The translations under genes and the position numbers were made by a program. From contig JAFTME010000153.1 of assembly GCA_017452545.1 (NCBI GenBank), forward strand, positions 1-51,654: a stretch of 51,654 nt of DNA, given 5' to 3'. Below, piece by piece: positions 7,440 through 19,901 of the stretch (position 1 is its first letter; each line of letters begins with the position of its first letter). The notes under the pieces are model-generated. The model ran no database searches. It had not been told where the DNA came from and was given only the letters and a program-made list of their open reading frames with translations. This stretch comes from Clostridia bacterium. GTDB taxonomy: Bacteria; Bacillota; Clostridia; Oscillospirales; CAG-272.

Positions 7440-7579
7440 GATGGTGACCTCGCAGAGCGTTTTTTTGTATTTTACCATAAAGCCACGGGGTTGTCAACAA
7501 GAACGGGGGAAGAAATGTAAAAATCCCATTCGTTGCTTGCAACGAATGGGATGGTAACAGGAAGAATGGGGCAGTGCAA

Positions 7580-8284
7580 TCATCGGCGTAGCTGATCGGC
7601 TATGGTCGAAATAAATTTGCGGTTGGTGGTGTCTTGAACGGTATCGCCGAAATAGGCAATGAGGGTATTCACGTCGCCCCTATCCCACGCGATCTCGATG
7701 GCGTTGCGCATCGCACTGCTCACGCGGGCGGCAATGGTTACATGCTGTCGCGCAACGGAAGGATAGAGCTCCTTGGTGACCGAGTTGATGATATCGGGGT
7801 TCTCGACGACCATGAGGATGGCGGTACGGAGGTATTGATAGCCCTTGATATTGGCGGGGATTACAACTTGGTTCATGATTTTTGCAAGACGGTTTTTCAA
7901 CGGGTCATTTTCTTGCTCTAATTGTACGTGAACGGCGATCATCGCAATAAATTCAGAGTTGGTCGGCTTTCCTCTGTTCTCCGTTGTATAACCGAAGTAG
8001 TTGTTGAGAATGTCGATGTCGCCTTGATCCCACGTGACGGAAATGGCATGAGCCATAGCAGACTCCACAAGGGATGGGCGGGTTTGGTGTTTTTTTGCCA
8101 CGAAAGGATAAAGATATTTTGTCATGGCATCGATCAAATCAAAATCTTCTACGGCCAGAAAAATGGCAGTCTTCAAATATTCATAGCCCAGGAGCTTTTT
8201 AGGCACAGCGAGGTCATCCAAGATATCAATGATGTTTTTTTCAATGCGTTCAATGCGGCATTTTTCAAAATATTCCTTAAACAT
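7580..8284 (-). CDS. Receiver-less protein with two tandem Spo0A C-terminal (effector/DNA-binding) domains
   Basis: Start ATG at 8284 lies 5 nt after GGAGG. Domain 1: LGYEYLKTAIFLAVEDFDLIDAMTKYLYPFVAKK...[38 protein letters not shown]. Domain 2: [35 protein letters not shown]...AIEIAWDRGDVNTLIAYFG. Both align along their length with the C-terminal domain of the adjacent Spo0A. Confidence 0.8.
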   Translation of the reverse strand: MFKEYFEKCRIERIEKNIIDILDDLAVPKKLLGYEYLKTAIFLAVEDFDLIDAMTKYLYPFVAKKHQTRPSLVESAMAHAISVTWDQGDIDILNNYFGYTTENRGKPTNSEFIAMIAVHVQLEQENDPLKNRLAKIMNQVVIPANIKGYQYLRTAILMVVENPDIINSVTKELYPSVARQHVTIAARVSSAMRNAIEIAWDRGDVNTLIAYFGDTVQDTTNRKFISTIADQLRR

Positions 8285-8323
8285 AGGAGCCTCCAAAATG
8301 AAAACAGGATAGTTTCTTTATAT

Positions 8324-8352
8324 ATTGTAGCATGGGTTCGCGGATTTGTCAA
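8324..8352 (-). promoter_or_regulatory. Consensus sigma-A promoter of the tandem Spo0A_C gene
   Basis: Minus strand TTGACA (8352-8347), 17 nt spacer, TACAAT (8329-8324). It lies immediately after the spo0A terminator. Confidence 0.65.
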
Positions 8353-8355
8353 CAG

Positions 8356-8385
8356 AAATGCTCCCGACGGGTGTCGGGAGCATTT
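8356..8385 (-). terminator. spo0A terminator hairpin
   Basis: Perfect 13-bp stem AAATGCTCCCGAC / GTCGGGAGCATTT with a 4-nt loop, starting 3 nt after the spo0A stop. The downstream T-tract is weak (TTCTGTT). Confidence 0.6.
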
Positions 8386-8387
8386 CA

Positions 8388-9182
8388 TCAGTGATACATC
8401 TTATACCTGAGCCTCAAATTATCCGCTATCATCGCGATAAACTCGCTATTGGTCGGCTTTCCGCGGTTATTCTGAATGGTATATCCGAAGTAACTGTTCA
8501 GCGTATCCACATCACCTCTGTCCCATGCGACCTCAATGGCGTGGCGGATGGCGCGCTCGACGCGGGATGTCGTGGTGGCATATTTCTTGGCGACGGAAGG
8601 GTAGAGCACCTTGGTGACCGAGTTAATAATGTCGCTGTCACGTACGGTCATAAGTATGGCGGTGCGCAGATACTGGTAGCCCTTGATATGCGCGGGAACG
8701 CCGATCTGATGGATGATCTTGGTGACCTGCGTTTCAATGTCGGGCGTTTTATCATTTTCGTTTTCGTGCGATGCCTCCTTGGCAATGGCAGCATCGGTGC
8801 GAGCGGTTGCAATCTCCTCAATGTGCTTGCAAAGACTGCCCATGTGAATGGGCTTGAGCAGGCAAAGCTCCGCACCTGCGTTGGTCGCTTGGATAAAGAT
8901 GCTTTCGCTGGAGACGGTCGACATCATAATAATGGTGGGCGTGCGATCGGGCGAAAAATCCATGCTGCGAACGGCGCGGAGCACGCCGATGCCGTCCATT
9001 TTGGACAGCCATACGTCGATCAGCACAATGTCGGGATGGTTGCGTGAGATGCGGGAGAGCGCCTCCTCACCGTTGGCTGCTTCCTCAATGTGGCGATAGC
9101 CTGCGTGGATCAGTCCTTCGCGCAACGTTGCACGCTGCGACTGGCTTTCATCTGCGATCAGAATACGAGTGGTATATTCCAT
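8388..9182 (-). CDS. spo0A: Stage 0 sporulation response regulator Spo0A
   Basis: N-terminal receiver (ILIADES...[14 protein letters not shown]). C-terminal signature: [19 protein letters not shown]...[19 protein letters not shown]...[24 protein letters not shown] lies 8 nt upstream. Confidence 0.95.
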
Positions 9183-16197: not shown

Positions 16198-18636
16198 TCA
16201 GAGCAGCGCGTTTTTGAGAATCTCGGATGCGTGAGAGCAGGGGATAAAGGTGAGATTGTCGCGTGCCAATGCATCGATATCCTCCAGATCACGTTCGTTT
16301 TCAGCAGGAATAAGTACCGTCTTAACGCCGGCGTTGTAGGCTGCCATGGTCTTCTCACGCAGTCCGCCAATGGGCAGGACTCTGCCGCGCAGTGTGATCT
16401 CACCCGTCATGGCAATATCGCGGCGCACGCAGCGACCGGTCAGCGCGCTGACCAGGGCTGTCAGCATGGTCACGCCTGCGCTGGGACCGTCCTTGGGAAC
16501 GGCACCCTCGGGAACGTGAATGTGGATATCCTTTTTCTCGTAGAAATCGGAGGGAATGCCGTATTCGGCGGCGATGGAGCGCGTGTAGGTGATGGCGGCG
16601 CGCGCAGACTCCTTCATCACGTCGCCGAGCGAGCCGGTCAGCTCCAGCTTACCCGTGCCGTCCAGTACAGCGGCTTCAATGCGCAGCATATCGCCGCCAA
16701 GCTCGGTGTAAGCCAGTCCGTTGACGGTACCGACGGCATCCGTCTCGTCAATATGCTCGGGCAACAGCTTGCGAGCACCGAGATACTCCTTGATGTTCTT
16801 GACGCCGACCGTCACGCGACCGACGCCCTCGTCGATCATTTTGCGCGCTGCCTTGCGGATGAGAGAGGCAATGGTTCGCTCAAGATTGCGGACGCCCGCC
16901 TCGTGTGTATAATAGTCGATCAGCTCGCAGATAGCGTCGTCCGTCATGCGGAATTTGGTCTTGTTCAGACCGTGACGCTGCAGCTGCTTGGGCAGCAGAT
17001 GGTGCTTGGCGATGTTGAGCTTTTCCCGTTTGGTGTACATCTTCATCTCGATGATCTCCATACGGTCGATCAGCGGACGGGGAACGGTGTCCAGCGTATT
17101 TGCCGTTGCGATAAACAGGCAGTCGGACAGGTCAAAGGGCAGCTCGATGAAATGATCGCGGAAGGCGCGGTTCTGCTCGCCGTCCAAAACCTCCAGCAGC
17201 GCTGCCGCAGGGTCACCCTGCAGGCTCTCGCTCATTTTGTCGATCTCATCCAGCAGGATGAGCGGGTTGGAGGTGCCTGCCAGCGCGATCGCATTCATGA
17301 TGCGACCGGGCATGGAGCCGAGGTAGGTGCGACGGTGACCGCGGATATCGGACTCATCGCGGATACCGCCAAGAGAAACGCGGACGTACTTGCGCTTCAT
17401 GGCGCGTGCGATCGAGGCGGCAACCGAGGTCTTACCGACACCGGGAGGGCCGACCAGGCAAAGCACCTGGTTTTTCAACTCGGGATGCATCTGCTTGACG
17501 GCGAGATATTCCAAAATACGATCCTTGACCTTGTCAAGCCCGTCATGATCTTCGTCGAGAATACGTTTTGCGGTGGCAATATTGAGGCGATCCTTGCTCT
17601 TTTTGCCCCAGGGCAGGTCAAGGACGGTATCGAGGTAGGTCGTGATCACACCTGCCTCCTGCGAGCCGAAGGGCGTTCTTGCCAGGCGGTCGTTTTCCTT
17701 GAGCAGCTTGGCGCGGGCCTCCTCGGACAGCGGTGCGGACATGATACGCTCCTCATACTTGGCGGTTTCGCTATTGGCGCCCTCGCCCAGCTCGTCCTGA
17801 ATGACGCGGATCTGCTCGCGCAGGTAATATTCCTTTTGATTGCGCGCAAGGTTGGCGCGCACTTTATTTTGAATGTCTGCCTCACAGGCGAGCAGCTCGC
17901 GCTCCGATTCCAGAATGGCCAGCAGCGTTTCCACGCGCTCCATCGGCTCAAAGCATTCCAGAATGGCTTGCTTGTCCTCGCATTTGACCAGCACATTGGC
18001 AGCAATAAAGTCGGAAAGCTGACCGGGATTGCGCATGCCGGCTGCCGTTCGCATCAGCTCCTCCGACGTTGCGGGGAGATAGCGGAGAATACGGGGCAGC
18101 TCACGGTGCAATGCGTGCAGCGCAGCCTGAACGCGAACATCATCGGTGTCGCGCAGCATGATCGCCTTGATCAGTACGTCAGCGCAGGGCATTTCAGCAT
18201 CCATATTCAGCGACAGAACCTGCGCACGGGAGAGGCCCTCGACGATCAGTCGCGCATTTTTTTCGGGCGTGGTGATCAGCTGCTTGATGCGCGCAACGGT
18301 TCCGACACGGTACAGTGCTGCGGATGCGTGCGAGGGACGCTCGCCACCGGCGGCACCGAGCAGGGCAGAGAGCGCGCTGTCGGTATCGGGCTCCTCGCCG
18401 TCTGCCATCATCTGCTCCAGCTGCTCGGCAAGCAGCTCATCCAGCTCGGGCTCGTCACCGGGGATCTCGGTCAAGAGAAGCACGGGCGAGGCGGCATCGG
18501 CTGCGGCACGAGCAATCGCAATATCGCTGTTGTCGGTCAATTCAAAATTCAACAGTGCGGACGGGAAGGCAACGATGCCGCGCAGCGTCAGCACGGGAAG
18601 TGTCATTTTTTCGGCTTTTTCAATGGTATGGGGCAT
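16198..18636 (-). CDS. lon: ATP-dependent Lon protease
   Basis: 812 aa. LON N-terminal domain, Walker [10 protein letters not shown], and protease motif [11 protein letters not shown]. Confidence 0.95.
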
Positions 18637-18952: not shown

Positions 18953-18962
18953 TTATCAAAAT

Positions 18963-18990
18963 TGACGAATATTGGCGATAAATTTCGTCA
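18963..18990. promoter_or_regulatory. Inverted pair of perfect 0A boxes (TGNCGAA)
   Basis: TGACGAA at 18963-18969 and TTCGTCA (reverse complement TGACGAA) at 18984-18990. These form TTGACGAA-N14-TTCGTCAA, directly upstream of the -35 of the orphan promoter. Confidence 0.4.
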
Positions 18991-19040
18991 AAACACATAA
19001 CAGTGAGAAAATATCCCCTACTTTTTTATTGTTTTTTGAT

Positions 19041-19115
19041 ACATTTTGTCAATGACATTTGTGTCATACGACAAAATGTCGTACAGCGACATGCAGAGCG
19101 CAAAAATGTCGTACA
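19041..19115. promoter_or_regulatory. Cluster of TGTC/GACA palindromes and a 13-bp direct repeat (candidate operator array)
   Basis: ATGACA-TTTG-TGTCAT (19052-19067). TACGACA-AAA-TGTCGTA (19067-19083). AAAATGTCGTACA occurs exactly twice (19073-19085 and 19103-19115), 30 bp apart. Confidence 0.4.
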
Positions 19116-19178
19116 AAAAAGCCGAAACCGGTTCGAAGAGAAAAGAGAAAAAAGATCGAAAAATTTTTCAAAATAGTA

Positions 19179-19207
19179 TTGACAAGCCGCCGGACTTGTG
19201 GTATAAT
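19179..19207 (+). promoter_or_regulatory. Consensus sigma-A promoter of infC-rpmI-rplT
   Basis: TTGACA (19179-19184), 17 nt spacer, TATAAT (19202-19207), with a TGTG -16 motif. Confidence 0.7.
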
Positions 19208-19365
19208 ACCACGGAAAAGGAAGCAGAACCACCGTTCTCACCCTGCCGCACAAGGCGCGCACGGGTCGATAATGAACCACCTCTTTGACGGATTTGACGA
19301 AATGACAAAAAGGAGTGGTCTCGTTCGGTTGGCACTGTGCTTCCCGGACGATTTTTTATTTTTAC
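19208..19365 (+). ncRNA. Probable L20 leader (ribosomal-protein autoregulatory leader) with attenuator terminator
   Basis: About 170 nt structured leader upstream of infC. It ends in the stem TCGTTCGG (19321-19328) / CCGGACGA (19344-19351) followed by TTTTTTATTTTT. This position and architecture match the Firmicute L20 leader. I could not verify the fold itself. Confidence 0.45.
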
Positions 19366-19385
19366 TAATTCGGAGGTACACTGCT

Positions 19386-19901
19386 ATTAGCACGAAAGAA
19401 TTGCTGATTAACGAGGACATCAGAGTCAACGAAGTCAGAGTCACCAGCGCGAAGGGTGAGATGCTCGGTATCATGAGCACAAACGCTGCACTGAAGATGG
19501 CGTATGACAGCGGACTTGATCTCGTTCTGATCGCGCCTCAGGCTACGCCCCCCGTCGCTCGCATTATGGACTACGGTAAGTATCGCTTTGAGTGCGAAAA
19601 GAGAGAAAAGGAAGCAAAGAAAAAGCAGCAGGTCGTGGAGCTCAAGGAGATCCAGCTGTCCTGCAGAATCGATGTTCACGACTTTGAAACCAAGGCGCGT
19701 CAGGCACGCAAGTTCCTGGAGGCGGGTAACAAGGTTCGCGTCGTTATGAAGTTCAAGGGCCGCGAGATGAGTCACCAGTCCATCGGACGCGAGGTTATGA
19801 CTCGCTTCTCCGACACGCTTGCCGATATCGGCGGCTCGGATAAGCCCCCCGTTCTCGACGGACGCTTCATGAGCATGGTGCTTACCCCCGTAAAGAAATA
19901 A
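19386..19901 (+). CDS. infC: Translation initiation factor IF-3 (non-canonical ATT start)
   Basis: (I/M)STKELLINEDIRVNEVRV...PPVARIMDYGKYRFE...VVMKFKGREM. There is no in-frame ATG, GTG or TTG near the conserved N-terminus. ATT at 19386 lies 7 nt after GGAGG. Confidence 0.9.
   Translation: MSTKELLINEDIRVNEVRVTSAKGEMLGIMSTNAALKMAYDSGLDLVLIAPQATPPVARIMDYGKYRFECEKREKEAKKKQQVVELKEIQLSCRIDVHDFETKARQARKFLEAGNKVRVVMKFKGREMSHQSIGREVMTRFSDTLADIGGSDKPPVLDGRFMSMVLTPVKK

Follow-up and report, generated by a model that had tools for sequence, protein, structure and literature searches.

A 234-residue protein that carries two Spo0A effector domains (Spo0A_C) on one chain and has no receiver domain is encoded beside spo0A on contig JAFTME010000153.1, which derives from an uncultured gut member of the Clostridia. 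The whole 51,654-nt stretch that was analysed is called the window below and provides the numbering of positions; both the tandem gene and spo0A lie on its minus strand. The basic observation, two Spo0A_C domains without a receiver beside spo0A, is confirmed: this is a true gene that, by all appearances, is expressed and under selection. The reading that we favour, with a probability of roughly 0.45 and hence a little short of even odds, is that the product would be an auxiliary, phosphorylation-independent regulator in which the second domain (copy 2) is a DNA binder of altered specificity and the first (copy 1) serves as a protein-contact module.

The protein starts with MFKEYFEK (its 234 residues being counted from the ATG), and the 702-nt reading frame is intact. 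Spo0A_C is matched by Pfam in two stretches (E 6.3e-64) with no other Pfam domain; in particular, neither Pfam nor a purpose-built receiver (REC) profile finds a Response_reg domain. The domain limits (Table 1) come from a Spo0A_C profile built from 100 true Spo0A proteins. The initial annotation had described a receiver-less open reading frame (ORF) with two full Spo0A effector domains and had proposed a profile search; both Pfam and our own profiles bear this description out, the Spo0A_C search returned two domain copies and zero Response_reg, and every peptide string quoted in that annotation is present in the ORF. The product of the neighbouring spo0A carries Response_reg (E 1.5e-22) and Spo0A_C (E 1.8e-46) in Pfam and scores 279 bits against TIGR02875. 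The tandem protein also exceeds the TIGR02875 cut-off of 200, with 243 bits, but the match spans only profile positions 147-259 and the score is an artefact of summing two partial matches. Annotation pipelines would probably name the tandem protein Spo0A, and spo0A counts based on TIGR02875 will be wrong for it. The window protein itself has no entry in the contig index when looked up by exact match.

According to structure prediction, the protein is a confident, compact two-domain fold. The AlphaFold2 model, based on 37 diverse multi-copy proteins, has a predicted local distance difference test score (pLDDT) of 93.9 and a predicted template-modelling score (pTM) of 0.90, and all five models reach at least 92. 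In the model, helix F of copy 1 ends at residue 125 and helix A of copy 2 runs from residue 128, after an Asp-Pro pair; from this spacing, the domains would be joined almost rigidly. Each domain matches the solved Spo0A structures 1LQ1 or 1FC3 in Foldseek (target-normalised TM 0.84-0.92, root-mean-square deviation 1.4-2.4 Å), and no solved structure covering both domains was among the Foldseek matches. A first model, made from the 10 closest tandem proteins, had a mean pLDDT of 65 and was replaced by the 37-sequence model; a mixed alignment of tandem proteins and full-length Spo0A, in which the receiver domains fell against copy 1, was not used for modelling.

The tandem gene adjoins spo0A directly downstream, with no gene between them, and has its own expression signals. 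A terminator hairpin begins 2 nt past the spo0A stop codon (-26 kcal/mol, z = -6.25), and the T-rich tract behind it continues into the -35 hexamer of the tandem gene. The promoter comprises TTGACA at 8352-8347, a 17-nt spacer, TACAAT at 8329-8324 and a TG at -15/-14, and agrees with the consensus at 11/12 positions. The hairpin was not listed by a consensus terminator scan; against this stand the RNA-fold result and its conservation at four loci. In three orthologous loci from different samples (L010, L011 and L015), the order of terminator, -35, extended -10, ribosome-binding site (RBS) and ATG is found at the same positions, with an RBS of GGAGG or GGGGG. Because the whole arrangement is kept in position at three other loci, these signals are not a chance match, and the earlier proposal of an own consensus promoter and RBS after the spo0A terminator has held up, now with conservation at four loci.

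Proteins with the MFKEYFE... N-terminus form a family, termed family A, that comprises the window protein, P0003, P0005, P0006 and the fragment P0009. The gene, its site and its promoter recur on three further contigs of uncultured gut Clostridia, and in 4/4 family-A loci (window, L010, L011 and L015) the gene lies immediately downstream of spo0A. The neighbours in the window (spo0A, rluB, dacB, ytfJ, scpB, an EamA transporter gene and lon) represent a chromosomal rather than a phage setting. Between scpB and the tandem gene, the window and L010 have their genes in the same order, with protein identities of 37-80%: 80% for Spo0A, 66% for the tandem protein and 37-75% for neighbouring genes. 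The G+C content is 47% in the tandem gene, 53.8% in spo0A and 54.3% in the window.

Copy 1 and copy 2 are 56% and 58% identical, respectively, to the adjacent Spo0A effector domain and 41% identical to each other, and the best local nucleotide alignments of the copies to spo0A are 69-74% identical; the duplication is judged from the sequences to be old, not recent. In a neighbour-joining domain tree, the sequences group by copy: one clade unites the four of copy 1, and a second, which adjoins the Spo0A proteins of the same organism group, unites the four of copy 2. The two clades across orthologs therefore point to a single fusion before the lineages split. The initial annotation had argued for local duplication of the neighbouring spo0A, which stands only in a distant sense, as the fusion predates a split across which Spo0A and the surrounding genes have diverged to the identities given above. 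Pairwise ratios of nonsynonymous to synonymous substitution rates (dN/dS; NG86) are 0.13-0.21 for copy 1, 0.08-0.29 for copy 2 and 0.11-0.24 for the whole tandem gene against its orthologs; the Spo0A effector domain of the same genomes gives 0.03-0.09, and dN of the tandem gene is 2-14 times that of this domain. On these ratios, the tandem gene is constrained, with purifying selection on both copies, yet fast-evolving.

The clearest departures from Spo0A lie in the recognition helix. Residues are numbered here as in Bacillus subtilis Spo0A via the 1LQ1 alignment, with the 100 true Spo0A proteins as reference. The recognition-helix motif (positions 210-221) is 100% conserved at 12/12 positions in the 100 Spo0A sequences; in the tandem protein, copy 1 has SLVESAMAHAIS at these positions and copy 2 has ARVSSAMRNAIE, neither of which is the invariant motif. 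Arginine 214 (R214) is present in 108/109 single-domain sequences scored, is serine in both copies of the window protein, and is replaced in 21/22 domain copies of family A and of the related families B and C (see below). The earlier claim of altered recognition helices thus proved correct, R214 being replaced in both copies.

Copy 1 of the window protein carries the substitutions K171L, T208R, T209P, R211L, R214S, R217A and E221S. Ten derived copy-1 residues (A165, K177, F181, D191, A192, M193, H205, P209, S214 and S221) are fixed in 4/4 orthologs, which points to a new conserved surface rather than to drift. Copy 1 is acidic, with a net charge of -1 to -6 and an isoelectric point (pI) of 4.9-6.1 over the orthologs (window: -6, pI 4.9). 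It retains helix F and helix E (227-240), the latter of which B. subtilis genetics has identified as the sigma-A-activating region. In copy 2, K171 (or R), R211, R217 and E221 are retained in 4/4 orthologs, and the net charge is +2 to +5 versus +3 to +5 for Spo0A_C. Position 214 is S, N or C among the copy 2 orthologs and position 213 is variable; the window copy 2 is the most derived, with E213S, R214S and H218N in the recognition helix. Since P0009, a fragment from another sample that is 81% identical, carries the same copy-2 recognition helix, this helix is not a sequencing error.

These features can be joined into a tentative scheme. Within a narrow clade of uncultured gut Clostridia, an effector domain would long ago have been duplicated and fused, giving rise to a gene retained beside spo0A under its own sigma-A promoter. 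Copy 2, with its basic charge and most basic and polar helix-turn-helix residues kept, probably provides the DNA binding; the absence of R214 (in the window also of E213 and H218) should make it recognise a sequence different from the canonical 0A box, or recognise that box loosely. Copy 1, from which four to six of these residues are missing and which conserves a new surface, most likely makes protein-protein contacts, and its partner would be RNA polymerase sigma-A, an adjacent bound Spo0A or copy 2. The tandem protein would act alongside Spo0A and not as a stand-in for Spo0A~P, any link to sporulation being one that we infer.

Several observations weigh against this reading. R214 reportedly contacts 0A-box bases in the 1LQ1 structure; what the alignments themselves provide is its near-invariance and its location in the recognition helix. 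In the window copy 2, a clean 12-nt in-frame deletion has removed four residues of the conserved NRGKP loop, helix F is substituted and partly lost, and the C-terminus is shortened by small indels; these changes could reflect decay. In the L010 ortholog (JAZLCA010000015.1, GCA_045613985.1; 5874-6606), the start codon is ATA instead of ATG, and one surplus T within a T-run causes a frameshift after about 42 codons; promoter and RBS are intact, and the lesions are either real, recent decay or a consensus error of the metagenome-assembled genome (MAG). The synonymous rate is near saturation in several of the pairs that were compared. Moreover, in 80 Spo0A loci from related species, close relatives included, no second Spo0A_C (0/80) was found in the 3 kb downstream of spo0A (less in a few loci). 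Because the gene is absent from these loci, it is dispensable and often lost, and in the Spo0A tree its carriers are scattered among non-carriers.

Three other explanations have to be weighed. It is possible, albeit unlikely, that the tandem protein does not bind DNA and acts as an anti-activator or partner, for instance by using its retained helix-E surfaces to sequester RNA polymerase or sigma-A region 4, or by binding Spo0A. The fact that helices E and F are largely preserved, both in copy 1 and among most orthologs of copy 2, together with changed recognition helices and a slightly acidic protein overall (pI 6.1), would suit such a role; however, the Spo0A-like positive charge and basic residues of copy 2 would be needless in a pure decoy, and helix E of the window copy 2 is degraded (D230N, N233I, S234A and Y238D).

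The initial annotation had put forward a covalent mimic or competitor of Spo0A~P, that is, a single-chain tandem effector dimer that occupies adjacent canonical 0A boxes unphosphorylated. We regard this as improbable for the window protein. A mimic on tandem 0A boxes fits poorly because R214 is lost twice, copy 1 is acidic (-6 versus +5 for Spo0A_C) and stripped of K171, R211, R217 and E221, and 0A boxes are neither enriched nor conserved: TGTCGAA is seen 2 times in the window versus 7 expected, with no excess, and no 0A-like box is conserved among the four orthologous promoters. The losses in the NRGKP loop and helix F of the window copy 2 point the same way. The compact model, with its helix-to-helix junction and almost no linker, would nevertheless be compatible with such a dimer, and the isolated Spo0A effector domain is reported to bind its legitimate targets without phosphorylation (PMC3485338). 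The mechanism is also plausible for P0125 (three copies) and P0133 (two copies), wider relatives in which every scored Spo0A recognition residue is kept in all copies.

Least probable is decay: the gene would be what remains of an old duplication and would no longer have a function in the window organism. The L010 lesions, the patchy distribution, the high dN, the loop deletion and truncated tail of copy 2 and the low G+C content would agree with this, yet the reading frame is unbroken, both copies have dN/dS ratios well under 1 (window pairs included), the consensus promoter and RBS are conserved, P0009 shares the copy-2 helix, and the predicted fold is confident and compact.

Words that resemble 0A boxes occur elsewhere in the window, at 18960-19120, between lon (16198-18636, minus strand) and infC. 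At 18962-18991, TTGACGAAA and TTTCGTCAA are paired in inverted orientation; two occurrences of AAAATGTCGTACA, at 19073 and 19103, are 30 nt apart; and the cluster also contains the palindrome ACGACAAAATGTCGT. These words could be regulator sites. In the ORF at 19059-19901, the IF3 domains begin only at residue 117; much of 18960-19120 is therefore taken to be a long leader.

The coordinates of the features are collected in Table 1. At its start, in positions 1-768, the window holds the 3' end of a 23S rRNA gene (1-301), tRNA-Lys(CTT) (395-470) and 5S rRNA (652-768), the tRNA thus lying between 23S and 5S.

Table 1. Features of the tandem gene and its surroundings in the window, and related genes at other loci.
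Feature	Position	Strand	Basis
Receiver-less tandem Spo0A_C gene (family A), 234 aa	7580..8284	-	ORF list, Pfam
Tandem protein copy 1, aa 13-123	7916..8248	-	domain limits from Spo0A_C profile
Tandem protein copy 2, aa 128-234	7583..7903	-	domain limits from Spo0A_C profile
spo0A proper, Response_reg + Spo0A_C, 264 aa	8388..9182	-	Pfam, TIGR02875
spo0A intrinsic-terminator hairpin, 14-bp stem, 4-nt loop	8355..8386	-	RNA fold
Sigma-A-type promoter TTGACA-17-TGnTACAAT, extended -10	8324..8352	-	consensus match
Ribosome-binding site GGAGG, 5 nt upstream of ATG at 8284	8290..8294	-	sequence reading
Terminator-like hairpin, 13 pairs + T-run, after tandem gene	7523..7552	-	terminator scan
Family-B/C tandem or triple Spo0A_C genes	L016 1283-3674; L012 208-4362; L014 3535-5245		

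The window protein belongs to a wider class of proteins with several Spo0A_C domains. A word-indexed search of 5.8 billion proteins placed about a dozen tandem proteins above the bulk of ordinary Spo0A matches. A tandem profile was also run exhaustively with HMMER against 1.84 billion representatives (50% identity); domains were counted in the best 150 matches, among which 40 representatives carry 2, 3, 4 or 5 Spo0A_C domains and only 4 have a receiver. The size of the class, at least 40 clusters at 50% identity, is thus a lower bound; proteins with 2-5 copies number 51 among those retrieved. Its members include one of 849 aa that has five copies, one of 1003 aa that has three, and the four receiver-plus-two-effector proteins (P0121-P0239 set). 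All multi-Spo0A_C representatives come from MAGs or metagenomes, and none has a protein name in any source. Recognition helices are heterogeneous across the class, and many are without the full Spo0A residue set. The loci of P0125 and P0133 (L102 and L105) lie among housekeeping genes.

Family B (MMKxYNENSSEINEK...) has two or three copies and is found in contexts other than spo0A. At one of its loci, the surroundings include a SASP gene, a MazF/PemK toxin and a STAS (SpoIIAA-like) protein; at another, they include an LRR protein and a divergent protein of 137 aa with a single Spo0A_C-like domain. A third type (L014) adjoins a phage-type HNH/AP2-like gene. The family-B/C loci may be mobile cassettes of sporulation-related genes. 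A DNA pattern of the domain junction gave 1 match in the window versus 0 expected and occurred on 2 contigs in genomes of 185,579 species; it was found 0 times in JGI metagenome contigs and 0 times in IMG/VR. Because it fits only sequences of the family A/B/C type, this pattern understates the wider class. A P0007 protein-pattern scan of IMG/VR found nothing.

Matches to a family-B tandem protein in phage records (14) all fall within the span of one domain. Three such records that were inspected (L099-L101: MT835504.1, MT835737.1 and MT835715.1) hold a full-length receiver-plus-effector spo0A and no truncated or tandem gene. These scaffolds, unverified and labelled 'Bacteriophage sp.', stem from viromes of human faeces, and their spo0A may represent bacterial DNA in the viromes or prophage-flanking sequence.

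With respect to known systems, the tandem protein is closest to Spo0A itself (TIGR02875; 1LQ1, 1FC3), with which it shares the Spo0A_C family and six-helix fold at the effector identities given above. In contrast to Spo0A, it lacks the receiver and its phospho-acceptor, has two effectors per chain, has R214 replaced and an acidic copy 1, and is encoded by a gene with its own sigma-A promoter. The sad67 allele and the isolated C-terminal domain of Spo0A in B. subtilis are laboratory constructs with one domain and a wild-type recognition helix. Removal of the receiver relieves inhibition; therefore, constitutive activity is expected of a protein that consists of effector only. Like these constructs, the tandem protein is freed of the receiver; unlike them, it is not a single wild-type domain. 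MarA and Rob of the AraC family carry two helix-turn-helix modules on one chain and bind DNA as monomers with unequal contributions of the modules. They offer an analogy only, since their fold and ancestry are unrelated to those of the tandem protein.

Extra spo0A paralogs occur in some Clostridiales (Galperin et al., bioRxiv 10.1101/2022.02.25.481979) and include Cthe_3087 of C. thermocellum (PMC3804516). These paralogs are likewise spo0A-derived extras, and the passages on them mention neither their domain architecture nor tandem effectors. Human-gut phages carry truncated, receiver-less spo0A homologs, for which a bypass of host signals has been suggested (Schwartz et al., mBio 2023, PMC10294663; cf. 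phrog_24603). These homologs resemble the tandem protein in having an effector without a receiver and in the phosphorelay-independent activity proposed for them. However, they show a single effector domain in the published alignment and come from viromes, whereas the tandem protein has two domains and is chromosomal, its gene lying between rluB/dacB/scpAB-type genes and an EamA transporter gene in conserved spo0A synteny. PHROGs includes a Spo0A_C family of 111 positions. No description of tandem effector-domain proteins was found in searches of the literature on Spo0A_C (PF08769), its paralogs and its truncations. Thus, the earlier statement that no protein of this architecture was known stands for the searchable literature; it does not stand for sequence databases, which hold the clusters counted above, and single-domain phage homologs have been published.

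In the prevailing view, Firmicutes enter sporulation by phosphorylating a single regulator, Spo0A. A protein made of the output domain only and transcribed on its own would act on, or next to, the Spo0A regulon without the phosphorelay, a bypass by effector-only proteins that has so far been proposed only for single-domain phage homologs. More broadly, and with considerable doubt, we propose an unrecognised class with 2-5 effector domains, scattered in uncultured Clostridia and in contexts resembling mobile elements, that might exert phosphorelay-independent control over decisions governed by Spo0A, some members, those with intact recognition residues, as single-chain readers of 0A arrays and others, among them the window protein, as re-targeted regulators or partners of Spo0A. 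The host organisms are gut commensals, in which sporulation affects transmission. The combination of a DNA-binding-like copy with a repurposed one, the arginine being lost, suggests that the output domain of a master regulator may be recycled into a new factor.

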